Shown in pieces: positions 6,481 through 55,164 of a DNA stretch of 64,000 nucleotides; the first letter of the stretch is position 1; the number at the start of each line of letters is the position of its first letter. The notes beneath the pieces were generated by a model. The model worked only from the letters and a program-made list of their open reading frames with translations, did no database searches and had not been told where the DNA came from. The stretch is from Nitrospinota bacterium (GTDB lineage: Bacteria > UBA8248), in contig JAYGFR010000103.1 in assembly GCA_046581755.1 (NCBI GenBank), forward strand, positions 16,869 to 80,868, read 5' to 3'. Position numbers and translations under genes: made by a program.

Positions 6481-7233
6481 TCATTCCAGGATGATTCCAG
6501 CGCGTGCGGCGCCGGCCCCCGGGCTGATGACCTCGGCCAGCACCGCCACCGACGCGTAAACGGCCAGCGCCTTGCCGATGAAGAGCCGCCGCGCCACCGG
6601 GCCGAAATGGCGGCTGTCCAAGACGTCCTCGCGGTTGTCGCCCATCATGAAATAGGCCCCCCGCCCCAGCGCGATCGGGCCGAAATCCTCGGTCCTGCCC
6701 CGCCCCCGGAATTTTCCGGGAAGCGGCAGGCCGTTCACGAAAATCCTCCCGCCCCGGGCCTCGATCCGCTCGCCGGGAAGGCCCACCACCCGCTCGATAT
6801 ACGTCGCCCGTTCGGCGCCCGGCCTCCGGAAGACGGCGATCTCGCCCCGCGCGATCCCGAGATGGCGGTAGCGCTCCCGGTCCACGATGATGTGATCGCC
6901 CTCCTCGAGCCGGGGCTCCATCGAAGCCGTCGCGATGCGCAGGATGCGCCCGGCGAAGATGCCGCTGTCCTCCCGGCCCGCCTCCTCCCATCGCGCGTTC
7001 GCCTCCTTCCGCTCCCCTCCCATGTAGAGGGCCAGCCCGAGCCGGTAGAGGGAGTCCGCCCGGTAGGGCGGCAGGGCCCCGAGCATCTCCCGGTAGAAGC
7101 GCGCCGCCTCCCGGTAGCGCCCCGCCAGGAAAAGCGACTGCCCCCGCCCCAGATCCCCGGCCGGTGCGCCCGATGCCGTGAGCGAGAGCGCCAGCGAAAC
7201 GGCGGCCACGGTTCGGGGGATTCCGGACGGCAT
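6481..7233 (-). CDS. signal peptidase I (S26)-like protein with N-terminal signal peptide and TPR segment
   Basis: Start is taken at MPSGIPRTVAAVSLALSLTASGAPAG, which looks like a signal peptide. A TPR-like stretch (RYREAARFYREMLG...LYRLGLALYMGG) follows. SPase I boxes SMEPRL and YFMMGDNREDVLDSRHFGPV are present. Box D reads TYIERVVGLPGE, that is, Glu where the general-base Lys is expected. Confidence 0.7.
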   Translation of the reverse strand: MPSGIPRTVAAVSLALSLTASGAPAGDLGRGQSLFLAGRYREAARFYREMLGALPPYRADSLYRLGLALYMGGERKEANARWEEAGREDSGIFAGRILRIATASMEPRLEEGDHIIVDRERYRHLGIARGEIAVFRRPGAERATYIERVVGLPGERIEARGGRIFVNGLPLPGKFRGRGRTEDFGPIALGRGAYFMMGDNREDVLDSRHFGPVARRLFIGKALAVYASVAVLAEVISPGAGAARAGIILE

Positions 7234-8518: not shown

Positions 8519-8880
8519 ATTCAAACCTTCTCTCCATCTTCGAGCGCGCCGTCTCCGAGCGCCGCCCGGATGGACTCCACCACGCCCTCGATATTTTTCA
8601 TCAAATCCCCGTTCCAGAAGCGCACCACCCTAATCCCTCTCCCGCCAGCGCGCGGCTTCGCTCCGCGTCGTATTCGGCCTGATCGCTCCCGGCGTGCCCG
8701 CCTCCGTCAAGCTCCACCGCCAGCCGCGCCTCGTGGCAATAAAAATCCAGGATGAACGGCCACGCCGGATGCTGACGGCAGAATTTCACGCCCAGCCCGC
8801 TGTCCCGGAGGACTCGCCACAGCTTCCGCTCCGCCTCGGTGGACTCTTTGCGAAGCTCCCGGGCCGGGCCTTCCTCTTTT
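8519..8880 (-). pseudogene. DUF559 endonuclease-domain gene remnant (frameshifted, no start codon)
   Basis: Two frames together read ...ESTEAERKLWRVLRDSGLGVKFCRQHPAWPFILDFYCHEARLAVELDGGGHAGSDQAEYDAERSRALAGEG / IRVVRFWNGDLMKNIEGVVESIRAALGDGALEDGEKV. A one-nucleotide frame change lies at about 8620-8630, and no start codon precedes the conserved N-terminal region. Confidence 0.6.
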
Positions 8881-9336: not shown

Positions 9337-9530
9337 TAAGGGTTTCCTTGGGGGCGGGTCTTTTTCGTTATTCCGAGCGCTAGCGAGAAATCTTCGAGGA
9401 GGAAAGTTTGCGGGACACCGCCCCAGAAGATTCTTCCCTCCGCTCCGCTGAGTTCAGAATGACGCAATAACTTCTACCGATTTTCCAAACTGAGATACAG
9501 CCAATTTCAATCGCCTATAATCACCATTTT

Positions 9531-9794
9531 TCAAACCAAACGACCGAGAATTTTTCGAACAGGCCTTACAAAAATCGCATTGTGCAATTTACTTATCCGC
9601 CTATTCGTAATGTCAAAATGGTGTCCCGTTCGAATATCTCTCCACATTCCAGAATAATTTGGAGTCAACACAACTTCATGGGTCAAAATATTAAAAAGAG
9701 AAAAATGAACCTTGATTTCATTTTGGGACCCTGACCATTCTGAAACTATTAAGTGCCCAGTTGTTTGCCTCATAATTTTGGAATCTTCTCTCAA
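9531..9794 (-). CDS. hypothetical small protein in the AT-rich islet (possible partner of the HNH protein)
   Basis: The 80-87 aa ORF lies immediately downstream of the HNH ORF in a different frame. It has low GC, and ATG or TTG starts are both possible. Confidence 0.35.
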   Translation of the reverse strand: MREDSKIMRQTTGHLIVSEWSGSQNEIKVHFSLFNILTHEVVLTPNYSGMWRDIRTGHHFDITNRRISKLHNAIFVRPVRKILGRLV

Positions 9795-9808
9795 GATGGG
9801 GTCTTGGC

Positions 9809-10519
9809 TTACCCTGAAAAATTTATAGTCCGGTGGGTTCCATAACGCACGAACCTTCGAATTGAATCAAAATTTTCACTGAGAACAAAATCCGAACCAG
9901 CAATTTTAGCAAGGTAGTTTAAGGCTATTTTTGAGACCGCCCTTTGAATTACACGATCAACGACGTATTCCCCTTCAATTTCTATTTGCCCTGAATTACT
10001 TGGTTGTGGAAATACTTCATTTTTCTCTTTAAAAGAAATCCCTTTGCGCCACAGAAGGCGAATTAGCCGTGGGACGTCCAAATCAGGAATTAATAGAATG
10101 CCTTTTTGAAGACTAATTCCATCAGGAAGGCTTCTCGCTTCATACAACTCAGGCTCTGCCATAAACTTCCATCCAACTTGTTGAGCTTTAGCAAATCCAA
10201 CTTGTGGTATTGGGGCATATGCCAATTTCCCTTCTTCGACTTTTACTCCCAACAACAATCCAATATATTCACAGTTATCTGCCAATCTCATGACTAACCT
10301 ATTGCCAATAAAGTCTGAGACCATTGATTTAACATCTTTCAACCCATATTCACTTCTTTGCAGTCCCTCAAAACTGTCCCTAGCCAAATAGGAGTCATGG
10401 TATTTTCCGAAAAATTCATTGCATTCATCACAAACACAATGAAGAATTAAATTGTCAGGCGCGAATCTACCAAACGACTGAGGAATTACATGCTCTCGTT
10501 TTGTGAATTCTCTCGACAC
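9809..10519 (-). CDS. HNH endonuclease-domain protein with a ~190-aa uncharacterised C-terminal region
   Basis: The N-terminus reads REHVIPQSFGRFAPDNLILHCVCDECNEFFGKYH, which fits the HNH pattern EH-x-IP...N-L...C-x2-CN. Local GC is about 35-40%, against about 68% in the flanks. Confidence 0.6.
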   Translation of the reverse strand: MSREFTKREHVIPQSFGRFAPDNLILHCVCDECNEFFGKYHDSYLARDSFEGLQRSEYGLKDVKSMVSDFIGNRLVMRLADNCEYIGLLLGVKVEEGKLAYAPIPQVGFAKAQQVGWKFMAEPELYEARSLPDGISLQKGILLIPDLDVPRLIRLLWRKGISFKEKNEVFPQPSNSGQIEIEGEYVVDRVIQRAVSKIALNYLAKIAGSDFVLSENFDSIRRFVRYGTHRTINFSG

Positions 10520-10563: not shown

Positions 10564-11660
<1,097 letters not shown>

Positions 11661-11664
<4 letters not shown>

Positions 11665-13004
11665 CGCGCATCTCCCGAATGAGCGCCCTCGCCCGCGGCG
11701 ATGGTCATCTCGCCCCGGTTGTCGTTCATGCTGTTCATAACGATCTTGCCGCCAACGACCGTGGCGGCGGCGCAGCCCTTGAGCTTCCAGCCCCCGAAGG
11801 GGGTGTTCCGCCCCCGGCTCTCGAATCGCTCGGGGCGGACCTCGCTCATCCGCTCCGGGTCGAGGAGGGTGACGTCCCCTGGAGATCCCTCCGTGAGCGT
11901 TCCGCCCGGGACGCCGAGAATCCGCGCGGGGCCCTCGGTAAATTTGGCGATCATCTCGGCCAGGGAGAGGATGCCGCCGTGGACGAGGCGGTCGATGGCC
12001 AGGGGCACGGCGGTCTCGAGCCCCACGATCCCGAAGGGCACGGCGTCGAACTCGACCTGGAGCTCGGCCTCGTAATGGGGGGCGTGGTCCGAGGCGATGG
12101 CGTCCACCGTGCCGTCCCGGAGGGCGGCGATGAGGGCCAGGCGGTCGGTCTCCGAGCGCAGGGGCGGGGCCATCTTGGCCGCCGAATTGAAGCCGTAAAT
12201 GGCCTCGTCGGTGAGGGTGAAATGATGAGGTGTTACCTCACATGTTACTTTCAACCCGTTATTTTTGGCCGTTCTGATAAGATCGATCGCGCCGCCCGAT
12301 GTGGTGTGCAAAATATGGAGCCGGGACCGGGTGAGCGCGGCGAGGCGGATGTCCCGGAAGACGCAGATGTCCTCGCTCGCGGCGGGGTTCGCCTCCAGGC
12401 CCAGCGAGGTCGAGACGGCCCCCTCGTTCATGACCCGGCCCCTGGAGAGGGACATGTCCTCGGCGTGGTCGAGGACGGCGGCCCCGAGCATTCCCGCGTA
12501 TTCGAGGGCCGAGCGCATGAGCTGGGCCGTGCGCACGGGGACTCCATCGTCGCTGAAGGCGACGCAGCCCGCCGCCCGTTGGTCGGCCATCTCGGCCAGG
12601 CGCTCCCCCTCGAGCCCGGCTGAGACCGCCCCGATCGGGTAGACCCGGCAGGCGGCCGTCTCGCGGGCGCGTTTCAGGATGCGCTCGGTGATCGAGCTCG
12701 TGTCGTTGACGGGGTCGGTGTTCGCCATGCAGGCCAACGCCGTGAAGCCGCCCGCCGCCGCCGCGCGCGTTCCGCTCTCGATATCTTCCTTGTATTCCTC
12801 GCCGGGCTCGCGCAGGTGGACGTGCATGTCGATAAAACCGGGCGCGGCCACGAGGCCCGCCGCATCGAGCACCTCATCGCCCTCGCGCGGGGGGATGTCC
12901 CGCCCCACCCGGGCGATGAGCCCCCCCTCGATCAGGATGTCGAGGGCGCCATCGACGCCCGCCGCCGGGTCGACGAGGCGCGCTCCCTTAATGAGCAACG
13001 GCAT
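11661..13004 (-). CDS. pyrC: dihydroorotase
   Basis: The ORF starts MPLLIKGARLVDPAAGVDGALDILIEGGLIARVG and contains GFIDMHVHLREPG. It is an amidohydrolase-fold protein of 447 aa. Confidence 0.9.
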
Positions 13005-14001
13005 CTTCGGCCTCCGCGATTTCCGCCCGTTTCTCGCTGGGCGGGTCCCCGGCGGGTCCGCCGCCGCTCTCCCCGCTCTGGCCGGCGAGGAGGTAGAGGA
13101 TCCCCATCCGGCAGGCGACGCCGTACTCGACCTGTTCGAGGATGACGGAGTACGGCCCGTCGGCCACGTCGGGGGACATCTCGACGCCCCGGTTGATGGG
13201 CCCCGGATGCATGATAAGCAGATCCTTCTTCACCCCGCGCAGGCGCTTGCGGTTGATGCCGTAGGTGGCGGCGTACTCGCGCTCGCTCGGGAAGGCGGCT
13301 CCCGCTCCGCGCTCGACCTGGATGCGCAGCGCCATCAGGACATCGGCCCACTCGATGGCCTCCTCCAGCCGGGTGGTCACCCGGGCCCCGAGGCTCCCGG
13401 CCTCGGCGGGCAGCATGGTGGCGGGGCCGCAAATCATGACCTCGGCCCCCAGCTTCCGGAGGGCGGTGATGTCCGAGCGCGCCACCCGGCTCCGGGCGAT
13501 GTCGCCCACGATGGAGACGCGCAGGCCCTCGAACTCTTTTTTGTGCTCCCGGATGGTGTAGAGATCAAGAAGAGCTTGGGTGGGGTGCTCGTGTCAGCCG
13601 TCCCCGGCGTTGACGACCCCGCAGCGGAGCTCGCGGGCCAGGTAGGCGGGCGCCCCCGAGGCCGGATGACGCACGACGACCACGTCGGTGGCCATGGCCT
13701 CGATGTTCCGGGCCGTATCGCGCAGGGTCTCTCCCTTTTTCGCGGCGCTGGACGAGGCGGCGATGTTGATGACATCGGCCGAGAGGCGCTTTCCGGCGAT
13801 CTCGAACGAGGTGCGCGTGCGCGTGGAGGGCTCGAAGAACAGGTTCACCACCGTCTTCCCGCGCAGGGAGGGCACCTTTTTGATGTCCCGCTCGTTCACC
13901 TCCCGGAAGGAGTCGGTCATATCGAGGAGGAACAGAATCTCCTCGGGCGACAGATCCCGGATGGAGAGGAGATCTTTTCCTTGCAACGGTTCCGGCTTCA
14001 T
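12988..14001 (-). pseudogene. pyrB: aspartate carbamoyltransferase catalytic subunit interrupted by a single in-frame TGA (codon 136, complement of 13594-13596)
   Basis: The N-terminal ORF ends ...STRTRTSFE...VVNAGDG, then TGA, then in the same frame HEHPTQALLDLYTIREHKKEFEGLRVSIVGDIARSRVARS...HPGPINRGVE. A Thermus-type GDGRHEHPTQ sequence implies an ancestral CGA (Arg) codon. Confidence 0.85.
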
Positions 14002-14597
14002 GGGGAATCCTCCGGGGCAGAGGGATGCGGCGAATGATCCTGGGGAATATGTTTTATCGCGAAACCGGGCGAATCCCGCACGATGATGGCGTCCCGCCCG
14101 TCGCTTTCCTCGAGAAGGACCTGGACCTCCTCGTCGGGCAGGACATCCAGGTTCCGGCCCACGAAATCCGCCCGGACGGGCAGTTCGCGCCCGCCCCGAT
14201 CGACGGCCACGGCCAGCAGGACGCGCGCCGGGCGGCCGAAATTCACCAGCATGGCCAGCGCGGCCCGGACGGTCCTGCCCGTGAACAGCACATCGTCCAC
14301 GAGAACGATGTCCTTGTCCGCGCAGGAAAAGGGCAGGTCCGTCTTCCGAAGGCGGGCGCGGGCGCCGCCCGCGCGATCGAGATCGTCCCGGAAGAGGGTG
14401 ACGTCGAGGGCACCGACGGGGGGGCGGGTTCCCTCGAGGCTTTCGATGATGCCCGAGAGCCTCTCGGCCAGCGGCACGCCCCGGGTGCGGATGCCGACGA
14501 GGGCGAGTTGGCCGAAATCCCCGCTCTGCTCGATGATTTCGTGGGCCAGGCGCTTGAGCGTCCGGCGCAACTGGCCGCTGTCCAGCTCCTCACGCAT
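13998..14597 (-). CDS. pyrR: bifunctional pyrimidine operon regulator / uracil phosphoribosyltransferase PyrR
   Basis: The sequence reads [47 protein letters not shown]...[21 protein letters not shown]. Its stop overlaps the pyrB start in an ATGA arrangement. Confidence 0.9.
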
Positions 14598-14639: not shown

Positions 14640-14690
14640 GGGCGAAAAAAAAACTCCATCCCTTCCGGAATGGAGGCCGATGTGCAAACC
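14640..14690 (-). promoter_or_regulatory. candidate PyrR-responsive attenuator: hairpin followed by a U9 tract in the pyrR-pyrB leader
   Basis: The minus-strand RNA reads cuccauuccggaagggauggag followed by uuuuuuuuu. The loop motif UCCGGAAGGGA resembles the PyrR binding loop, and the element sits in the leader upstream of pyrR. Confidence 0.35.
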
Positions 14691-14896
14691 GCTCAAATGC
14701 CCAATGTCGGGTGGTCATCCCGGCATCCTCCTTGGCCGACTCTCGGTCCGGCATTAAAGGTTGGAAGCCTTTTTCTTCTAATTTCTTCTTTTCTTCTTAC
14801 TTATATTTTCTTACTTACTTCGTACGGAACACGATGCCTCAACGCCCCGGACGATCCGGAATCTAACAGGCTTGCCCCCCGCGATCAAGGGGGAAG

Positions 14897-27824: not shown

Positions 27825-28691
27825 ATGAACGCTCAGAGCCAGGACCGCTCCCCGCGCGAGGCCCTCGTCATCGTCAAGGGCGCAGGCGATCTCGCCACCG
27901 GCATCATTCACCGCCTGTGGCGGAGCGGGTTTCCGGTCATCGCCACCGAGATTGAAAACCCCACCATGGTGCGGCGGACGGTCTCTTTCGCCGAGTGTCT
28001 CTACGCGGGGCGCCACACCGTCGAAGGCGTGGCGACCGAGCGCGCTGAGGGCGCCACGGTGGCCGAGAAACTCGCGTCCGCCAGAAAACTCCTCGATACG
28101 GGAACCCTGCCCGTCGTCATCGACCCGGGCGCGGAGATCGTCCCCCTCGCGCGGCCGGCCGCCCTGGTGGACGCCATCATCGCCAAGCGGAACCTGGGGA
28201 CCCGGATCGATCAGGCCGAGGCGGTGATCGGAATTGGGCCCGGCTTTACCGCCGGGGTGGACGCGCACGCCGTCATCGAGACCGCCCGCGGGCACGATAT
28301 CGGCCGGGTCATCCTCGATGGAGGGGCCGAGCCCAACACGGGCGTTCCGGGCCCGATCGGGGGCTACACGGTGGAGCGGCTTTTGCGCGCTCCGGCGGCG
28401 GGCGCCTTCGAGCCGCGCACGGCCATCGGCGATGCGGTCCGGGCGGGCGATGTCGTTGCGGTGGTGGGCGGCGCCGAGGTGAAGGCCGGGATCGACGGGG
28501 TTCTCAGGGGGCTTCTCCGCGAGGGAATCGAGGTCACCGAAGGTTTTAAGGTGGGCGACGTGGACCCGCGCGCGAAGACCTCGCACTGCCATACGATATC
28601 GGATAAATCGCGCGCCATCGGGGGCGGAGCTCTCGAGGCCATCATGATGTTTCTTTTTGGGGTGGAAACCGCCGCGGAGCAAACGCATTGA
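27825..28691 (+). CDS. YqeB-like (XdhC-C-like Rossmann) molybdenum-hydroxylase system accessory protein
   Basis: The N-terminus LVIVKGAGDLATGIIHRLWRSGFPVIATEIENP matches the motif remembered for the selenium-dependent molybdenum hydroxylase YqeB family. Identification rests on recalled motifs only. Confidence 0.55.
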   Translation: MNAQSQDRSPREALVIVKGAGDLATGIIHRLWRSGFPVIATEIENPTMVRRTVSFAECLYAGRHTVEGVATERAEGATVAEKLASARKLLDTGTLPVVIDPGAEIVPLARPAALVDAIIAKRNLGTRIDQAEAVIGIGPGFTAGVDAHAVIETARGHDIGRVILDGGAEPNTGVPGPIGGYTVERLLRAPAAGAFEPRTAIGDAVRAGDVVAVVGGAEVKAGIDGVLRGLLREGIEVTEGFKVGDVDPRAKTSHCHTISDKSRAIGGGALEAIMMFLFGVETAAEQTH

Positions 28692-29575
28692 GCATCGAGA
28701 CCTTTACCGAAGTCGTCGAAAACGGGACCTACCGGATCGGGCGGAGCGTCATTTCGATCAACCATGAGAACGAGGACAATCCGTTCGTCCCCGGCCCGCA
28801 GTTCTACATTTCCGCCGGGAACTCGCTTGAGCGGATATCCTGGGCGGTCAGCCAGAGTCTGCCCGTCCTCCTGGTGGGCGAAACCGGGGTGGGCAAAACG
28901 CTCTCGATCCGCCATCTGGCCCACATGACCCGGAACGGCTTCCGCCGCGTCAACCTGAACGGGATGACCACGGTGGACGAGTTCGTCGGCAAGCTCATGA
29001 TCAACGAAAAGGGCACCTACTGGATCAACGGCATCCTGATCGAGGCGATGGAGGCCGGCGACTGGCTTCTCATCGACGAGATCAACGCCTGCCTGCCCGA
29101 GATCGCCTTTTGTCTCCACAGCCTGCTCGACGACGACCGGATGATCGTCCTCTCGGAGTACGACGGGCGGATCGTGCGCCCCCACCCGGATTTCCGCCTC
29201 TTCGCCAGCATGAACCCGAACGAAAACCGCCGCTACGGCGGAACGAAACCGCTCAACGAGGCTCTGCTCGACCGCTTTCCGCTCACCCTGAAGATGGACT
29301 ACCTCCCCTTCGACGCGGAGGTCGAGGTGACCATGCACCAGAGCGGAAACGAAGACCGGGCGCTTGTCGAGCGGATGGTCCGGGTGGCGCAGGATGTCCG
29401 CGAGGCCATGGAAAACGAGAAAATATTCTCCACCTTCAGCACCCGGAGGCTCATCGACTGGGCGCGCATGGCCGCGCAGTTCGATCCGATGGAAGCCGCC
29501 ACCTCGACCATCTTCAGCAAGGTCAATCCGTTCGATGCGAAGGTGATCGAGGACATCCTCGACAACCACTTTTAG
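28688..29575 (+). CDS. AAA_5 (MoxR / CbbQ / CoxD / CobS-like) ATPase
   Basis: A Walker A motif is present as LLVGETGVGKTL and Walker B as LLIDEINACLPEI. It has a sensor region and is about 295 aa long. Confidence 0.75.
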   Translation: MSIETFTEVVENGTYRIGRSVISINHENEDNPFVPGPQFYISAGNSLERISWAVSQSLPVLLVGETGVGKTLSIRHLAHMTRNGFRRVNLNGMTTVDEFVGKLMINEKGTYWINGILIEAMEAGDWLLIDEINACLPEIAFCLHSLLDDDRMIVLSEYDGRIVRPHPDFRLFASMNPNENRRYGGTKPLNEALLDRFPLTLKMDYLPFDAEVEVTMHQSGNEDRALVERMVRVAQDVREAMENEKIFSTFSTRRLIDWARMAAQFDPMEAATSTIFSKVNPFDAKVIEDILDNHF

Positions 29576-29587
29576 GCAGGCCACGGC

Positions 29588-31360
29588 ATGGAACCCCGCC
29601 GAAACCGCCTCGAAATCCTGGCCCAGGTCGCCGCGCACGACTACGAACTCGATCTGCGCTACGGCGACACCGGCCGCCAGGAAAAGAAAACCATCCATAT
29701 CGAAGACCCGGAGCGCACCCTCGATCGGCTCAGGGGCGAGCTGAGCGATGCGCACGTCATCCGCTACCAGAAGGGAATGACCCTCATCGAGGTGGCCCAC
29801 CGCCTGGAGGGGACGCTTCGCTGGGCCCTCCGGGCCGCCCGGGCCAGCCGCGAGCGTCCGGGCCTGTTTCAAATCTGGCACGCCGTCGAGGATGCACGCT
29901 GCGAGAACCGCCTGGCGGCCACGCTTCCGGGGACGCGCAAGAATTTCATCGAGTTCATCCGCCCGGCCCTGAAGGAGGCGGAAATTCTCCACGCCCGGGG
30001 CGAGCTCTCGCTTTTCTTCCAGGTCCAGTGGGGGCTCTACCTGATCGGGCAGGGAATCGAGCCGGGGACGCGCGCGCCGGAGCCCAGCCATTTCGACACC
30101 CTCTGGCTGGAGCCCGGTGTCCTCGAATTCTTGGACGAGCTGAGACCCCTCGCCGTGCGGGCCGGCCAGGCCGATGGCCCGGCCGAGGCGTTCGAGTGCG
30201 CCGAGGCGCTCTACGCCGCCATCCGCGAGCGCCTGCCCGAGGAGCTTCTCTCCGAGGCCCTGCAGGATCTCCCTATCCCCGATATCCCCGAGGAGGTGCT
30301 TGAGAGGGCGGAGAATCAAGAAACCGCCGGCGCGGAGGGAGAGATGGAGGAAACCTTCGCCGCCGACCTGTCGGACACGGACGCCGAAATCGACGAAGAG
30401 GCCTTCGAGCTCACCGAGGAGGAGCTTTCCGCGCTCGGCCACTGGGCCAGCCCCTGGTTCGAGTTCAAGGGCCACTCGAAGGATATCCATCCCTCGGCGG
30501 TCCGCTCGGACGAGGGCACGATATTCATCCCGCCCGAGGGGAAATCCGAGGAATACCAGGCGATCGTCAATAACGCGAGCAGCCAGATCAAGGTGCTCGC
30601 CCTGAAACTGATGCAAATCATCCAGGAGCGGCGCTACACCCGCTACAGCGGCTCGTTCCGCTCCGGAAAACTCAACACCCCCAAGCTGTGGAAGCAGCGC
30701 CTCGGGAAATACCACCTCTTCCTCCGCCGCGAGAACCCCGAGCGCCTCGACATCTGCTTTACCCTGCTGGTGGACGAGAGCGGCAGCATGAACCGCGAGT
30801 CGAAATACCTGGCCGCGCGCGAGGCCACCGTCTTCTTCGCCGAGGTGCTCGACCGGGTGGAGGTCCCCTTCGAGGTCATCGGCTACTCGACCGAAAGCTC
30901 CGAGGCGGCGATGGCCGCTTCGCTGGGCCACGTGCCGGCCTTCAAATACCGCCACATCCGCCACTCCCCGCTCCAGCACAGAATTTACAAGGGCTTCGAC
31001 GAGCCGTTTCAAGGCGCCAAGAACCGGCTCGTGAACATCCACCCCCGGTTCAACAACTGGGACGAGGAGCACCTTCAGTTCGCATACCGGCGGCTCCTCG
31101 GGAGGAGCGAAGCCGAGAAGGTCATCATCATCACCTCGGACGGCCAGCCCAACGGCGATGCGAGCCATCTGGTCGAAACGGTCCACCGCCTTGAAAAACT
31201 CGGCGTCCGCATCATCGGCGTCGGCGTGGTCGATCCCTTCGTCGAGCAGATTTACCCCAACTTCATCGTCGTCAAGCATCTCGATCAGCTTGCCGAGGAG
31301 CTGGTGGAGATTCTCCGCAGCGAGCTTCTCCGGAGCGGAAGGGGTGGCCGGGCCTCGTGA
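29588..31360 (+). CDS. VWA-domain protein (CoxE / CobT / NorD-like partner of the AAA_5 ATPase)
   Basis: It has an acidic central stretch and a C-terminal VWA domain whose MIDAS motif reads LLVDESGSM ... IIITSDGQPN. Confidence 0.75.
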   Translation: MEPRRNRLEILAQVAAHDYELDLRYGDTGRQEKKTIHIEDPERTLDRLRGELSDAHVIRYQKGMTLIEVAHRLEGTLRWALRAARASRERPGLFQIWHAVEDARCENRLAATLPGTRKNFIEFIRPALKEAEILHARGELSLFFQVQWGLYLIGQGIEPGTRAPEPSHFDTLWLEPGVLEFLDELRPLAVRAGQADGPAEAFECAEALYAAIRERLPEELLSEALQDLPIPDIPEEVLERAENQETAGAEGEMEETFAADLSDTDAEIDEEAFELTEEELSALGHWASPWFEFKGHSKDIHPSAVRSDEGTIFIPPEGKSEEYQAIVNNASSQIKVLALKLMQIIQERRYTRYSGSFRSGKLNTPKLWKQRLGKYHLFLRRENPERLDICFTLLVDESGSMNRESKYLAAREATVFFAEVLDRVEVPFEVIGYSTESSEAAMAASLGHVPAFKYRHIRHSPLQHRIYKGFDEPFQGAKNRLVNIHPRFNNWDEEHLQFAYRRLLGRSEAEKVIIITSDGQPNGDASHLVETVHRLEKLGVRIIGVGVVDPFVEQIYPNFIVVKHLDQLAEELVEILRSELLRSGRGGRAS

Positions 31361-32175
31361 GCGCCGGCGCGCTGTCCGGGGCCATCGGGCTCGGGCCCGG
31401 CCAGATTCTCGCGGCCGCCGGGGGCGGGGGTAAGACCAGCCTGCTCCGGGCGCTTGGAGAGGAATGCCACGCCGCCGGGATGCGCCCGGCCATCCTCACC
31501 CCCACCACCCACTTTTTCTCCCCCGAGCCGGCCGGGGAGGCCCCCCTTTTCCTGGGAGAGGTGGAAGCGGTGGACGCCCGCCTCCGCGAATACGGCGGGG
31601 AGTGGCCGGGCCCCCTCACGCTGGCCCGGCGGCGGACGGGGGAATCCCCCGTACCGGGGACGCCGGGCGAGAGGCGGATGAAGATGGGGGGGTATCGCGC
31701 CGATGAGATCGAACGCCTCCGCCGGCCGGGCGGTGTCGTCCTCGTGGAGGCGGACGGCGCGCGCGGGCTTCCGATCAAGGCGCCCGGACCGGACGAGCCG
31801 GTGATTCCGCCCGGGGCGGACATCGTCCTCGGGGTGGTGGGTCTGGATGCGCTCGGGGGGCCGATTGACGAAGCCCATGCCTTCCGCCCGGAAATCCTCT
31901 CTTCCCTGACCGGCCTCCCGCTCGGCGCTCCGGTGGATGCCGCGGCCATCGGCTGCCTCGCCGCCCACCCCGAGGGGCTGTTCCGGGGCGCCCCGAAATC
32001 CGCCCGGCGGGTCCTGATATGCAACAAATCCGACCGGATCGGGCGGATGGAAAAACCGGAGCAAATCGGTTATATTATTGCGGAAATTGCATGTGCCCCG
32101 AACGGGCCGGCGGATCTGCTTCTTTTTACAGCATGCCTTCCGTCCGGCCTCCGGGTGGGGCGGCCGGTTCCATAA
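31357..32175 (+). CDS. YqeC-like P-loop accessory protein (putative selenium-dependent molybdenum hydroxylase maturation)
   Basis: A P-loop GGGGKTS sits near the N-terminus (ILAAAGGGGKTSLLRAL). The protein is about 270 aa, as in the YqeC family, and lies adjacent to the YqeB-like and XdhC genes. Confidence 0.55.
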   Translation: MSAGALSGAIGLGPGQILAAAGGGGKTSLLRALGEECHAAGMRPAILTPTTHFFSPEPAGEAPLFLGEVEAVDARLREYGGEWPGPLTLARRRTGESPVPGTPGERRMKMGGYRADEIERLRRPGGVVLVEADGARGLPIKAPGPDEPVIPPGADIVLGVVGLDALGGPIDEAHAFRPEILSSLTGLPLGAPVDAAAIGCLAAHPEGLFRGAPKSARRVLICNKSDRIGRMEKPEQIGYIIAEIACAPNGPADLLLFTACLPSGLRVGRPVP

Positions 32176-32243
32176 ACGGTGAAAAATCGACGGACCGATA
32201 AATGCGCCGCCGAACGCGGGGGCGAGAAAAGGACCAATCGGAA

Positions 32244-33392
32244 ATGAGCAAAGACGTTTTTAAGGAAATGTCCGAGTTGAAGGAAAAAGGAACCCGCGGC
32301 GCCATCGCCACGGTCGTATCGAGGAAGGGCTCCGCTCCCATGAGCGGGGACGCCAAGATGCTCGTCCGCGAGGACGGAAGCACGATGGGAACCGTGGGCG
32401 GCGGATGCCTCGAGGCCGAGGTCTGGCAGACGGCGATGAACATCATCGAGGATGGCAGCCCGGAAAAGGTCTCCTTCGACCTGACCGCCGACGAGGCCGG
32501 GGACAGCGGTCACATCTGCGGCGGAACGGTGGAAATCTTCATCGAGCCCTTCGACGCCTACGATCCCGGCCTCCTCGCCGAGATCCTCGATGTCCGGAAC
32601 CGTGGCCAAAGCGCCGTTCTGGCCACGGTGGTTCAGGTGGGGAGCGGGAAGGAATCCTCTCCCGATCAAAGGAAAATGCTAGTGAAGAGGAGCGGGACCA
32701 TGATTGGCGAAATCCCCGATTTCGCCGCCGAGATATGGCGTGAAAGCGGCCAGATCATGCGCCAGGGTCAGCCCTCACTGATGCAGTTTTGGGCCGGGGA
32801 CGATCGCCCGGGGGCCAAGCGCCGCTCCGCCGGGGATGCGACAGAAATTTTCGTGGAGCCGATCACGGCCCAGCCGCTGGTCTACCTGTTCGGCGGCGGG
32901 CACGTCTCCTACTGCGTGGCGCTGGCCGCCCAGATGGCCGGGTTCCGGATCGCCGTCGTCGAGGACCGGCCCAGCTTCGCCAACAAGGAACGGTTCCCGA
33001 TGGCGGAATCGTTCTATGTGGGCGAGCATCCCGCCATTTTCGACGAAATCCCGGTGGACGAATCCAACTACCTCACCATCATCACCCGCGGCCATGCAAA
33101 TGACGAGATCATCCTGGAGTGGGCGCTCAAGACCCCGGCCCGCTACATCGGCATGATCGGCTCAAAGAGCAAGGTTCTGCTGACCTACCGCCACCTGCGG
33201 GACAAGGGCTTCGACATGGACGAGATCATCCGCCGCGTCCATGCCCCCATCGGTCTCGACATCGGCGCCGACTCTCCCGGCGAGATAGGAATTTCCATCG
33301 CGGCCGAGTTCATCCGCCTCCGGCGCCAGGGGGAGGAAGCCATGCAGGACGCCCTTTCCAGCAAGAAAATCAACCTTCGGAAAAAATCTTGA
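32244..33392 (+). CDS. xdhC: XdhC / CoxF-family molybdenum cofactor insertion protein
   Basis: It has an XdhC_CoxI N-terminal domain (GAIATVVSRKGSAPMSGDAKMLV...GTVGGGCLEAEV) and an XdhC Rossmann C-terminus (LVYLFGGGHVSYCVALAAQMAGFRIAVVEDRP). Confidence 0.8.
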   Translation: MSKDVFKEMSELKEKGTRGAIATVVSRKGSAPMSGDAKMLVREDGSTMGTVGGGCLEAEVWQTAMNIIEDGSPEKVSFDLTADEAGDSGHICGGTVEIFIEPFDAYDPGLLAEILDVRNRGQSAVLATVVQVGSGKESSPDQRKMLVKRSGTMIGEIPDFAAEIWRESGQIMRQGQPSLMQFWAGDDRPGAKRRSAGDATEIFVEPITAQPLVYLFGGGHVSYCVALAAQMAGFRIAVVEDRPSFANKERFPMAESFYVGEHPAIFDEIPVDESNYLTIITRGHANDEIILEWALKTPARYIGMIGSKSKVLLTYRHLRDKGFDMDEIIRRVHAPIGLDIGADSPGEIGISIAAEFIRLRRQGEEAMQDALSSKKINLRKKS

Positions 33393-39741: not shown

Positions 39742-39801
39742 GGCATCCCTTTCAGGTTGAATAAATGACGAATTGACGCGAATGAACCCCCCGACCCCGG
39801 A

Positions 39802-40857
39802 TTATTTTTTTTTGGGTGAAACCGGGAATCTGTCGACCATATATTCTTCGCTATCGATGAGATGCACAAGGTCCGCCGCCGCCTTGCGCACCCGCCGCAT
39901 CAGGGGCGAGCCCAGGTCCGGCTTGACGGCGACCCGCTCGGCGCCCCGCCGCGCCGCCTCCTTGTCGCCCAGCCGGTAGTCGCATCGCGCGATGCGCCAT
40001 TCGGCGTAATTCGCATAAAACCCCTCGACCCTGCCCTCGATGTGCCGGAAGCGCCCGCGCAGCCTCCGGAACATCGCCCTTGCGCGCTTGTATTTTTTTT
40101 GAACGAAATACCCCTCCGCATGGGCGAAGCGGTAGTGGGGCTGATCGGGATAGTCCCCGATGAGCCCGGCGAGGACGGCGCGGGCATCGGCGAATTTGTT
40201 GTCCGCATAAAATGCGTAGACTAGCTCGATCCGCGCCAGGTCCCGGAGCCATCTGCCGCCCCTGGCAACCCGGCGCATGTAGCGAATCCCGGTATCGCCC
40301 GTGTCGCCGAGCAGCGGGGCCAGGTCGCGGAGCCATTTGGCCCGGCTACGCCAGAAATAATAGAGGCCCAGCCCGTAGTAGGCGTCCTCGAGCTTTGGGT
40401 TCAGGGCGATCGCCCGCTCGAGATAGCGCTTGGTTTTCAGGCTCCTTATGAGCGCCCGGACGTAGCTCTTCCGCCGGGAAGCCGCCAGCGCCCGCATTCC
40501 GGCTGCCAGACCCCCGAGAAGATAGGCCTCGGCATCCTTCGGGGCCGCCTTGATCCGTTCCTCGGCGAGGGCGGCCGCCCGCGCGGCGTTTTTCTCGAAT
40601 CCCTCCCGGAAGGGCGGATCCTCAAAATGCCCGGCCAGGATGCTGTAGACCGAGGCGAGGAAAAAATAGCCCCTGGGATCGCCGGGCGCTTTTTTCACCA
40701 CGCCCTCGAACTCGCGCAGGGCCTCCTCGTAGCCGCCGGCGGCGGTGGCCCGGAGGCCCCGCCGGATGCCGGCTTCGAGAGGAGAAGCCGCCCGGGCCGG
40801 CGCGGGCGCGGCGATGACCAAAAAAATAGCAGTGGCGAACCCAGCGGCTCGGCGCAA
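39802..40857 (-). CDS. secreted TPR-like repeat protein (hypothetical)
   Basis: It has a signal peptide (MRRAAGFATAIFLVIAAPAPARA) and Ala/Arg-rich TPR-like helices (AYYGLGLYYFWRS...). Confidence 0.55.
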   Translation of the reverse strand: MRRAAGFATAIFLVIAAPAPARAASPLEAGIRRGLRATAAGGYEEALREFEGVVKKAPGDPRGYFFLASVYSILAGHFEDPPFREGFEKNAARAAALAEERIKAAPKDAEAYLLGGLAAGMRALAASRRKSYVRALIRSLKTKRYLERAIALNPKLEDAYYGLGLYYFWRSRAKWLRDLAPLLGDTGDTGIRYMRRVARGGRWLRDLARIELVYAFYADNKFADARAVLAGLIGDYPDQPHYRFAHAEGYFVQKKYKRARAMFRRLRGRFRHIEGRVEGFYANYAEWRIARCDYRLGDKEAARRGAERVAVKPDLGSPLMRRVRKAAADLVHLIDSEEYMVDRFPVSPKKK

Positions 40858-42405: not shown

Positions 42406-42482
42406 GGACCGCACCCGATTTTGCGGGACCTGACTTTTGCAGGCCGTTTTTTTTCAAGGCCCGTGTTTTTTAGGAGACTCCG

Positions 42483-43034
42483 GTGAACGGCGAGCGGAAC
42501 GGAGGCACCATTCTCATGAGGGAGCGAGAGCTCGAACTGGCTCTCCGCCGGATGGCCTCTGAGATCGCCGAAATTTGCGCGGGCGATCCGCATCTGGCCC
42601 TCATCGGGGTGCGCACGCGCGGAGAACCCCTCGCCCAGCGGCTGGCCCGCTTGGTCGAGGAGATGGAGGAGATCGAGCCGCCCGTGGGCACGCTCGACAT
42701 CGGAATCCACCGGGACGACGTGGACCACCCCGGCGGGGGAAGAATTTTCGGCCCCACCGAGATCGGCTTTGACCTCGCCGAGCGGCAGATCGTCCTGGTG
42801 GACGATGTATTCTTCACCGGGCGCACGGTCCGCGCCGCCCTCGATGCGCTGGCCGAAATCGGGCGGCCGCGCCGGGTATGGCTCGCTGTCCTGATCGACC
42901 GGGGGCACCGCGAGCTTCCCTTCCGGCCCGATTTCACCGGAAAAAACGTACCCACCGCCACCGCCGAGCGAGTCAACGTCCGCCTCCGGGAGGTGGACGG
43001 CGAGGACGGCGTATGGCTGGTCAGGCCCGCCTGA
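42483..43034 (+). CDS. pyrR: PyrR-family protein (second paralog; regulator / uracil phosphoribosyltransferase)
   Basis: The sequence reads LELALRRMASEIAEICAGDPHLALIGVRTRGEPLAQRL...[21 protein letters not shown]. Confidence 0.8.
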   Translation: MNGERNGGTILMRERELELALRRMASEIAEICAGDPHLALIGVRTRGEPLAQRLARLVEEMEEIEPPVGTLDIGIHRDDVDHPGGGRIFGPTEIGFDLAERQIVLVDDVFFTGRTVRAALDALAEIGRPRRVWLAVLIDRGHRELPFRPDFTGKNVPTATAERVNVRLREVDGEDGVWLVRPA

Positions 43035-53382: not shown

Positions 53383-54048
53383 ATGACCCCCAAGCCACCT
53401 CCCCTCCGGCGCGTCCAGCACATCGGCATCAAGGTCCACGATCTGGACGAGGCCGAGGCCTTCTACCGGGACGTCTTGGGCTAGCGCGTGTCCGACCGCT
53501 ACGAGCCCGGCGACAATCCGCACAGCCTCTGGGGCATCTGCTTCATGCGGAGCGCGGAGCTTCATCACGAACTCTCCCTCCTCCACTACGTCCCCGAGTC
53601 GGGGCCGTTCGAGAAAATCGATGCCCTGCGCACCCCCGGCGTCGGCCTCCACCACATCGCCTTCGATGCCGGGTCCAAGGAAGCCTTCGAGGCCTGGGAG
53701 GAATACATCCGCTTCCTCGGAATCGAGATCTTCCACGGTCCCCGGGTCCACAGCCCGACCCATCCCGAGGGGGACGGGACCCTGGGCGAGAACCGGGCGT
53801 TCTACTTTCACGACCCTTCCGGGAACGGCATCGAAATTTTCACCGATCTGGCCCCGATGGACGAGGACACGAACCGCGTCAACGAGGCCTGGTTCCGCGA
53901 CCGCCTCGAACGGGACGGCTACGAACGCGGCTCCGCCGATCCGCCGCCCGCCGCCCGCCTGGAAACCCGGCGTATCGAGCATGGCGGGCGCGCACGAAAA
54001 ATTCGGGAACAAAAAATCCTGGTAAATTTCATGGAGACTTTCGAATGA
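53383..54048 (+). pseudogene. VOC (glyoxalase / extradiol dioxygenase) family gene interrupted by an in-frame TAG at 53482-53484
   Basis: An AGGAGA ribosome-binding site precedes ATG 53383. The N-terminal segment MTPKPPPLRRVQHIGIKVHDLDEAEAFYRDVLG is followed by TAG, then in the same frame RVSDRYEPGDNPHSLWGICF...GLHHIAFDAG...NGIEIFTD. The N-terminal part carries the first metal-ligand His of the VOC fold. Confidence 0.7.
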
Positions 54049-55001
54049 CCCACCGCATTGTGGCGGTCGATCCGAGGTGGAAAAACCCCGGCCGCCAGAA
54101 ATTCCTGACCGACCATCTGCCGGATGGATACGAACTGATCATCCCCGAATCCTTCGAGCCTGAAGACCTCCGCCGGGAGCTGGAATCGACCGCCGCCCTC
54201 GTCACCGGCCTTGGCGATATCACCGAGGAGATGATGCGCGCCGCGCCGAACCTCCGCGTGGTCGGCAAGGCGGGAACCGGGGTGGACTCCATCGATGTCG
54301 CCGCGGCGACGGCCATGAAGATTCCGGTGGCGCACACCCCAGGCTGGATGCGCGCGACGCCGGTGGCCGAGCACGCCCTCACCCTTATGCTCATGCTCGC
54401 TCGGAAACCCTGGCTCTGGCGAGGAAAGGAGCGTCCACCCCTGCACACGCAGCTATCGGAGTGCTCGGCCGGGATCGTGGGGCTGGGGAACATCGGCCAG
54501 CGCATCGCCGCCCGCTGCGCCGGGTTTGACATGGAGGTGCTCGCCTATACGAGGACGAAAGGAAAGTTCCAGCCCGAGGGATTTTCGGTCGAGGAGACCG
54601 GCTCGCTCGAAGAACTCCTGGGCCGGGCAGACTACGTCGTCCTCTCCCTCCCCCTCAACGAGGAGACGCGCGGAATCATCGGCGCGGGCGAACTGGGCCT
54701 GATGAAGCCCACGGCGTTCCTCATCAACGTCTCGCGGGGTAGCCACATCGTGACGGACGCCCTCGTCGCCGCTCTCCAAAACGGAGAGATCGCCGGCGCC
54801 GGCCTCGACGTGATCGAGCCCGATCCGCTTCCCGGGGACCATCCCATTCTCGAACTGGATAACGTTGCCATATCGCCCCATTGCGCCGCCCAGACCCAAA
54901 GCACACAGGATCAGAGCTACCGCCTCCTCGCCGAGAGCATCCGCCTCGCGGTCGAGGGCGAGCGCGTCGAAGCCCTCGTCAACCCGGAAATATACGGCTG
55001 A
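54045..55001 (+). CDS. D-isomer-specific 2-hydroxyacid dehydrogenase (PGDH-like)
   Basis: The sequence reads MTHRIVAVDPRW...GIVGLGNIGQRIAARCAGFDMEVLAY...LINVSRGSHIVTDALVAALQNGEIAGAGLDV. Its ATG overlaps the stop of the VOC gene. Confidence 0.85.
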   Translation: MTHRIVAVDPRWKNPGRQKFLTDHLPDGYELIIPESFEPEDLRRELESTAALVTGLGDITEEMMRAAPNLRVVGKAGTGVDSIDVAAATAMKIPVAHTPGWMRATPVAEHALTLMLMLARKPWLWRGKERPPLHTQLSECSAGIVGLGNIGQRIAARCAGFDMEVLAYTRTKGKFQPEGFSVEETGSLEELLGRADYVVLSLPLNEETRGIIGAGELGLMKPTAFLINVSRGSHIVTDALVAALQNGEIAGAGLDVIEPDPLPGDHPILELDNVAISPHCAAQTQSTQDQSYRLLAESIRLAVEGERVEALVNPEIYG

Positions 55002-55164
55002 CCGGCCGCCGCGCGGCGGAGGGCGTCATCTTCCTCGTCAATCCCCGGGCGGGGGGCGGGCCGCCCGACCGGACGCCCCCATTCGCCCGTGCTATAATTT
55101 TCCCACGGGAAAATTTGGCCACCCACCCGTGCCGCCGAGGCACACCCAAGGGAAGGATTTCCTG

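Follow-up and report, generated by a model that had tools for sequence, protein, structure and literature searches.

A private in-frame TGA in the pyrB gene of a Nitrospinota bacterium, best read as an ordinary nonsense substitution

The aspartate carbamoyltransferase (ATCase) of the Bacillus subtilis type (2AT2, 3R7D) is built of two domains and carries the motifs STRTR, NAGDGxxxHPTQ and HPxP. All of these features are shared by the pyrB product of the stretch of DNA analysed here – a window of 64,000 nucleotides (64% G+C) from a Nitrospinota bacterium (contig JAYGFR010000103.1 of assembly GCA_046581755.1, positions 16,869 to 80,868) – and the resemblance to Bacillus extends to the pyr operon, which in the window has the order pyrR-pyrB-pyrC-carA together with a PyrR-type leader (the latter as a sub-threshold match). 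The two differ at one telling place: where the B. subtilis enzyme has Cys (GDGCGQHPTQ), a TGA stands in frame in the window. With the Cys/Sec pairs of bacterial selenoproteins (Sec, selenocysteine) the window has in common a UGA that falls, in frame, on the Cys of homologues. Our analysis indicates that it is an ordinary, non-programmed nonsense substitution private to this assembly, a reading to which we assign a probability of about 0.9.

The elements of the interrupted gene are as follows.

12988..14001, minus strand: pyrB (aspartate carbamoyltransferase catalytic subunit), 337 codons plus terminal TAA, interrupted at codon 136
13594..13596, minus strand: in-frame TGA, pyrB codon 136; reconstructed ancestral codon TGC (Cys)
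13594: private base change in pyrB codon 136, C to A on the gene strand
13576, minus strand: silent window-private change, CAG to CAA (Gln), in the same 28-nt patch as the TGA
13567, minus strand: silent window-private change, CTG to CTT (Leu), in the same 28-nt patch as the TGA
13597..14001, minus strand: N-terminal product of 135 amino acids (aa) expected with termination at the TGA, carbamoyl-phosphate domain only

The minus strand around the TGA reads GTC AAC GCC GGG GAC GGC TGA CAC GAG CAC CCC ACC CAA GCT, and translation of 12988-14001 yields one internal stop, in the context VVNAGDG*HEHPTQALLDL. The original prediction, made from the letters alone, described pyrB as intact but for one in-frame TGA, and the pyr operon around it as intact; this description is borne out by sequence, translation and profile matches. 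The two pieces on which it was founded are indeed present in the list of open reading frames (ORFs), in one frame and split by one TGA (13594-14001, 135 aa; 12988-13509, 173 aa); from stop to stop, the segment 3′ of the TGA extends over 12988-13593. Against the PyrB model NF002032 the N-terminal piece occupies positions 1-126 (161 bits) and the C-terminal piece positions 128-296 (220 bits): exactly one model position has been swapped for a stop, and therefore there is no frameshift and no sequence has been lost. Each fragment by itself falls below the NF002032 cutoff (263 bits) and no uninterrupted chain of about 300 aa is encoded; taken together, the two supply both domains of the family (NF002032 / TIGR00670). 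The clade to which this PyrB belongs has in addition a C-terminal tail of roughly 30 aa that overlaps the start of pyrC.

Evidence that the TGA departs from a conserved Cys codon came firstly from five near-identical, independent metagenome contigs (L001, L003, L004, L005 and L125; 99.2-99.7% DNA identity over 1.2-15 kb) recovered from samples ERZ27247714, ERZ1643211, ERZ23486251, ERZ27247699 and DRR683877. All five read GGC TGC CAC at codon 136 and have CAG and CTG downstream; the window alone has TGA, CAA and CTT. At each of the two silent sites, four near-identical assemblies concur and the window differs. At greater distance, TGT occupies the codon in a relative with 87% DNA and 92% protein identity; L002 has TGT. 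Cys136 is present in all ten full-length variants of the 90%-identity protein cluster, and one protein, P0123 (400 bits on NF002032), is the same as the window translation at all residues but Cys136. In 32 GTDB loci, drawn from species-representative genomes of Nitrospinota and allied metagenome-assembled genomes whose protein identity does not exceed 92%, TGC or TGT is present in 27 cases and ATG, AGC, TTC or GCC in the others; TGA occurs in none. Because the near-identical assemblies are all TGC, and the distant loci mostly TGC or TGT and never TGA, the ancestral codon as reconstructed from these comparisons is TGC (Cys) and the event a third-base C-to-A transversion. The route originally envisaged, from CGA (Arg) to TGA by one C-to-T change, does not survive this comparison: near-identical assemblies have TGC, and Arg is limited to a relative that is 78% identical (P0009).

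The private nature of the allele was further apparent from searches of much larger collections. The degenerate pattern GGN GAY GGN TGA CAY GAR CAY CCN ACN CA had 0 matches in 185,579 species genomes and 0 in 241 million metagenome records, and exact look-ups of the 135-aa PyrB fragment and of the window-specific PyrR gave no match in other samples; the collections searched do not include the assembly from which the window itself comes. The exact pyrC protein of the window occurs in three other assemblies, in every case on a contig with intact pyrB. Samples that hold the population are ERZ1643211, ERZ27247699, ERZ27247714, ERZ23486251, DRR683875, DRR683877, SRR22804948, JGI 3300003702 and GCA_003506735.1; the k-mer by which the window allele may be traced in them is GACGGCTGACACGAGCACCCCACCCAAGC.

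The original prediction had placed a sequencing or assembly substitution and a recent nonsense mutation on its shortlist, and it is here, by way of a private TGC-to-TGA change, that the evidence ends. Between a young loss-of-function allele and a consensus or template-damage error we see an almost even balance, tipping slightly toward the allele. A census of private changes bears on this question; in it the window was set against two to six near-identical assemblies over 32,990 bases. It revealed 35 window-private substitutions, along with two 1-nt deletions. Coding substitutions comprised 16 synonymous, 12 non-synonymous and 1 nonsense change, a spectrum similar to that of the private changes of other assemblies; the synonymous share is far greater than unfiltered errors would give, and the window is therefore a broadly accurate strain sequence. 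The substitutions are strikingly clustered: three triples fall within 30 nt as against 0.014 expected, a number reached in none of 20,000 randomisations. The pyrB patch belongs to these, along with the clusters at 8574-8604 and 39794-39836. Smaller clusters are also seen among the private changes of other assemblies. Those of the window are located as follows.

8574-8604: cluster of private substitutions
13567-13594: cluster of private substitutions, the pyrB patch
39794-39836: cluster of private substitutions
40346-40348: cluster of private substitutions

To judge from their spacing and composition, these clusters look like multi-nucleotide mutation events or single-template damage and not like recombination imports. 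Moreover, 23 of the 35 substitutions, including all three of the pyrB patch, run from G/C to A/T, a bias that young unselected mutations and damage-derived errors fit equally well. The first compared region has 22 differences private to the window, of which 21 are substitutions and one is a deletion; their sequence contexts contain no shared motif of the kind left by long-read or methylation-type errors. A possible error signature, an excess of transversions in the first 12 kb (transitions to transversions 10:11 in the window versus 23:9 in relatives, P = 0.09), was discarded when it disappeared in the second region and overall (P = 0.31).

What can be said for a real allele is that the three changes lie within 28 nt, that two of them are silent and that the assembly is otherwise good; given their proximity, the three most likely arose together on one template. 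What can be said for an artefact is that pyrB is a core biosynthetic gene within an intact, translationally coupled operon and shows no secondary decay, that Cys is found in all other sampled genomes, and that the window carries a second private frame-disrupting lesion 3.8 kb from the TGA, a deletion of T at 9835 (AACCC-ACCGG in the window versus AACCCTACCGG in relatives) that does not lie in a homopolymer. Apart from the stop, PyrB is identical to P0123, and it follows that secondary decay is absent and that the lesion, if it is genuine, is very young; the additional lesions or relaxed constraint of an established pseudogene are not in evidence, the only other private changes of pyrB being silent.

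Several considerations weigh against an ordinary nonsense substitution. Selection should act against a nonsense mutation where the gene is biosynthetic and single-copy and the bacterium free-living. The intact operon, regulator and leader fit an error, or a codon that is decoded, better than they fit an established pseudogene. Finally, the alignment of TGA with Cys is the classical Cys/Sec signature, and with YqeB and YqeC encoded in the window the organism evidently handles selenium.

This last point deserves closer scrutiny. Were UGA-136 decoded as Sec, ATCase would here take a new form, that of a selenoprotein. Nearly all close homologues, and the B. subtilis enzyme too, have Cys where the window has TGA, and such Cys/TGA pairing is a criterion of selenoprotein screens that do not depend on the selenocysteine insertion sequence, or SECIS (PMC9312934). 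The window also encodes both YqeB (TIGR03309, 349 bits) and YqeC (TIGR03172, 143.5 bits), as members of the following cluster.

27825-33392, plus strand: selenium-cofactor maturation cluster encoding YqeB, a CbbQ/NorQ-like AAA ATPase, a CobT/VWA protein, YqeC and an XdhC-family maturation factor

The cluster places markers of selenium-dependent molybdenum hydroxylases in an apparent Nitrospinota genome. YqeB and YqeC mark that selenium-cofactor trait, which implies SelD and is independent of Sec decoding (PMC2276186). From the presence of the two markers it would seem that the organism probably has SelD elsewhere in its genome; Sec decoding is not implied by them.

The sequence around the codon offers little encouragement to the Sec explanation, which we consider very unlikely. 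The test applied was the presence of a SECIS stem-loop directly 3′ of the UGA (PMC9312934). For the 81-nt stretch that surrounds and follows the TGA the minimum free energy is -17.0 kcal/mol, which is unremarkable (z = +0.36 versus shuffles), and the same stretch folds more strongly in two Cys alleles (-23.9 and -25.1 kcal/mol): the three private changes therefore remove structure and build no SECIS. Neither folding nor Rfam, at gathering score and at permissive E values up to 10, revealed a SECIS-like hairpin 3′ of the UGA, with the caveat that bacterial SECIS elements are loosely defined. On the folding of the window and the two Cys alleles, and on the Rfam result, Sec insertion was rejected. 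Furthermore, the UGA is present in no relative, even among strains that are 99.7% identical, and the GDG-TGA-HEHPTQ pattern was matched in neither of the two large collections. Position 136 is itself variable – across the wider PyrB family the residues are A 52, C 47, S 10, G 7, T 5, M 3 and R 2, with F, I and V also found – and is neither a conserved redox residue nor a catalytic one. The 64-kb window is free of tRNA genes, and Rfam matches nothing in it at gathering score; its genes, so far as seen, include no sel gene, and our literature search found no report of a Sec-containing ATCase. Of the marks of a selenoprotein, then, there is the alignment of UGA with Cys, and neither a SECIS nor conservation of the UGA among orthologues or across the clade.

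A less exotic means of translating the codon is read-through: the stop would be real but leaky, with near-cognate insertion of Trp, Cys or Arg sufficient for prototrophy, helped by a weak UGA-C signal and by derepression through PyrR. The base after the TGA is indeed C (TGA CAC), and UGA-C has been described as a weaker terminator (PMC9841425). Since position 136 tolerates many residues in homologues, Cys and Arg among them, the read-through product would probably be active. The E. coli source for the weakness of UGA-C is reportedly Poole, Brown and Tate (EMBO J 1995). As a rule, basal read-through is minor in relation to termination. The C, however, is the first base of a conserved His codon present in all Cys alleles and is not an evolved context; no stimulating element is present in the sequence, and the structure downstream is weakened. 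The original prediction had named stop-codon read-through among its possible explanations and had proposed inspection of the codon in close relatives: TGC is found in all near-identical contigs and TGA in no relative, and with neither the stop nor a stimulatory context conserved in orthologues, read-through as a programmed signal fails. We judge leaky read-through adequate for prototrophy to be very unlikely. The same holds for the broader proposition that the TGA is real and usefully translated in a selenium-using Nitrospinota strain, with ATCase still produced, be it by near-cognate read-through in the weak UGA-C context at a position that tolerates substitution or, with far smaller probability, by Sec insertion of recent acquisition; if it were true, the window would offer a snapshot of a Cys codon passing into a recoded UGA.

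That TGA has been reassigned to sense throughout the genome (code 4 or code 25) is an explanation to which the lone in-frame TGA contributes, and nothing more; we give it almost no credence. TGA is the terminator of carB, mfd, pyrC and pyrR, as it is of roughly one in two coding-like ORFs, and no second internal TGA was found among the genes in the 33 kb compared with relatives, whereas an alternative code (table 4 or 25) would be expected to give many in-frame UGAs and none as terminator. The earlier argument against global reassignment, which rested on the lack of an internal TGA in carB and mfd, is supported, both genes being free of internal TGA and also ending in TGA. A G+C content of 64% is, to our knowledge, unlike that of known TGA-recoding lineages. 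Other adjacent ORF pairs in the same frame were considered as candidate split genes in the window, and all proved to be separate genes.

Relaxation of the search to a looser GDG-TGA-xx-HPTQ pattern gave 38 metagenome matches, two of which are PyrB.

L020 (SKEP01003389.1), about 7152-7154: lone TGA in a Lachnospiraceae-like pyrB that is otherwise intact
L039 (JAEEGI010805033.1), 505-507: lone TGA in a Lachnospiraceae-like pyrB that is otherwise intact

The possibility that these two define a family of Sec-containing PyrB was rejected: their relatives have Gly at the codon in 120 of 120 cases, the DNA nearest to L039 has GGA (from which a single G-to-T change suffices for TGA), and the two share just 66% DNA identity. 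The other genes on the L020 contig are without any TGA. On these comparisons the two are unrelated, independent Gly-to-stop singletons and not instances of recoding; such singletons, it is clear, do occur in assemblies.

The window's relatives are themselves not free of interrupted genes. In L134 (2031-4546) an 835-aa DctM is split into 374 and 474 aa; L129 13800-15254 and L130 13800-15313 (about 53488-55002 in the window) differ by gene splits or fusions; and in L129 and L134 a 186-aa ORF is fused with a 318-aa 2-hydroxyacid dehydrogenase, giving 484 or 506 aa. As far as these alignments go, frame-disrupting differences are common among assemblies of the population. Within the window, the deletion at 9835 splits a minus-strand gene at 9531-10291 that is a single 253-aa ORF in two near-identical assemblies; its product contains an HNH_5 endonuclease domain but matches no NCBIfam model. 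At 42446 the window has a private T8 versus T9 in an intergenic, terminator-like T-run downstream of a gene of the CCA-adding enzyme family.

The genes surrounding pyrB are described below.

13998..14597, minus strand: pyrR (bifunctional regulator/uracil phosphoribosyltransferase), NF003549, 210 bits (cutoff 138), intact
11661..13004, minus strand: pyrC (dihydroorotase), TIGR00857, 416 bits, intact
10564..11664, minus strand: carA (carbamoyl-phosphate synthase small subunit), TIGR01368, 439 bits, intact, its start overlapping the pyrC stop
14645..14764, minus strand: candidate PyrR-binding leader with terminator-like hairpin and T-run, upstream of pyrR, RF00515 below threshold

The stop of pyrR (a gene call of 199 aa in relatives) overlaps the start of pyrB (ATGA), and the start of pyrC overlaps the 3′ end of pyrB by 17 nt. 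It had been claimed that every neighbouring pyr gene is intact, the regulator and leader included. For the genes the claim stands, on profile matches to PyrR, dihydroorotase and CarA; for the leader it stands in part. In a search of 451 nt the PyrR-binding site model RF00515 matched upstream of pyrR over its full length, at 30.5 bits versus a gathering score of 54 (E = 0.023). The seed of this model is centred on Firmicutes and the lineage of the window lies outside it. The candidate hairpin is CTCCATTCCGGAAGGGATGGAG, followed by T9, and the element is likely to be a PyrR attenuator.

Beyond carA the cluster is broken up. A low-G+C island at 9500-10500 (38-40% versus 63-73% in the flanks), which carries the HNH-like gene, lies between carA and carB; it is followed by genes of normal G+C for an MFS transporter and an S26 peptidase, and carB is located 4 kb on from carA. 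Because the island is shared with near-identical relatives it is, on this comparison, an older insertion that has broken up the pyr/car cluster. A second PyrR paralogue (42483-43034, plus strand; NF003549, 211 bits) lies distant from the pyr operon, adjoining a gene of the CCA-adding/poly(A) polymerase family, and could be a source of uracil salvage or of extra regulation.

Assuming that the assembly is correct, the consequences of the substitution can be outlined. A single C-to-A change, accompanied by CAG to CAA and CTG to CTT, would have turned a conserved TGC into TGA in the lineage represented by this one assembly; translation would end at Gly135, and the 135-aa product would consist of the carbamoyl-phosphate domain, with neither the HPTQ active-site loop nor the aspartate domain. 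With both of these missing, no ATCase would be expected beyond what trace near-cognate read-through might supply, and the allele would be null. Expression of pyrC and carA downstream would probably fall too, because overlapping stop and start codons couple the translation of pyrB, pyrC and carA. If the allele is real, the cell would rely on pyrimidine salvage, and the loss of function could be tolerated via uracil salvage, for which the window has two PyrR/uracil phosphoribosyltransferase paralogues.

One further way in which function might be kept is a two-piece ATCase, in which translation restarts after the stop and the fragments assemble into active enzyme. The stop falls close to where the carbamoyl-phosphate domain gives way to the aspartate domain, and Yang and Schachman (1993) reportedly obtained complementation between fragments of the E. 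coli ATCase catalytic chain. However, the first ATG, GTG or TTG after the TGA is the GTG at 13509, 29 codons on and beyond the HPTQ motif, so that with a restart there HEHPTQ and the helix that follows would be in neither piece and the active site could not be rebuilt from any two fragments; such an arrangement is, moreover, found in no relative. With no start codon ahead of that GTG, restart to a two-piece enzyme was rejected, and we regard it as exceedingly improbable.

The preferred reading – a private, non-programmed nonsense substitution – carries a number of implications. The first is cautionary: a Cys/TGA pair in a selenium-using organism has the appearance of a selenoprotein candidate, and here it fails on comparison with near-identical strains. 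Secondly, pyrimidine auxotrophy, which had been raised as a consequence, cannot safely be inferred from this assembly, because pyrB is intact in every other sampled member of the population. For annotation, pyrB is best marked as containing an internal stop to verify, and not as a recoded or a split gene. Should the allele prove real and at high frequency, it would constitute a modest case of auxotrophy arising naturally within a population of uncultured Nitrospinota.

Returning to the described systems, the window PyrB departs from the B. subtilis-type ATCase in its interruption at codon 136, in fragments that score under the family cut-off, and in the C-terminal tail of its clade (about 30 aa). 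It departs from the Cys/Sec pairs of bacterial selenoproteins in having no SECIS, an unconserved UGA, a variable and non-catalytic residue at the position in question, and no Sec-decoding genes among those seen. With weak UGA-C signals it shares the tetranucleotide, but the context was inherited with the conserved His codon, which the Cys alleles have as well. There is a likeness, too, to the lone internal-stop calls of metagenome genes: L020 and L039 likewise have a lone TGA at the same codon of an otherwise intact gene, and relatives of the window also have private gene splits, such as that of DctM in L134. The match is not complete, in that L020 and L039 lose Gly whereas the window loses Cys, and the change in the window is accompanied by two linked silent changes. 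The pyrB TGA is, even so, an internal-stop call of an already known kind, and one of little biological weight.

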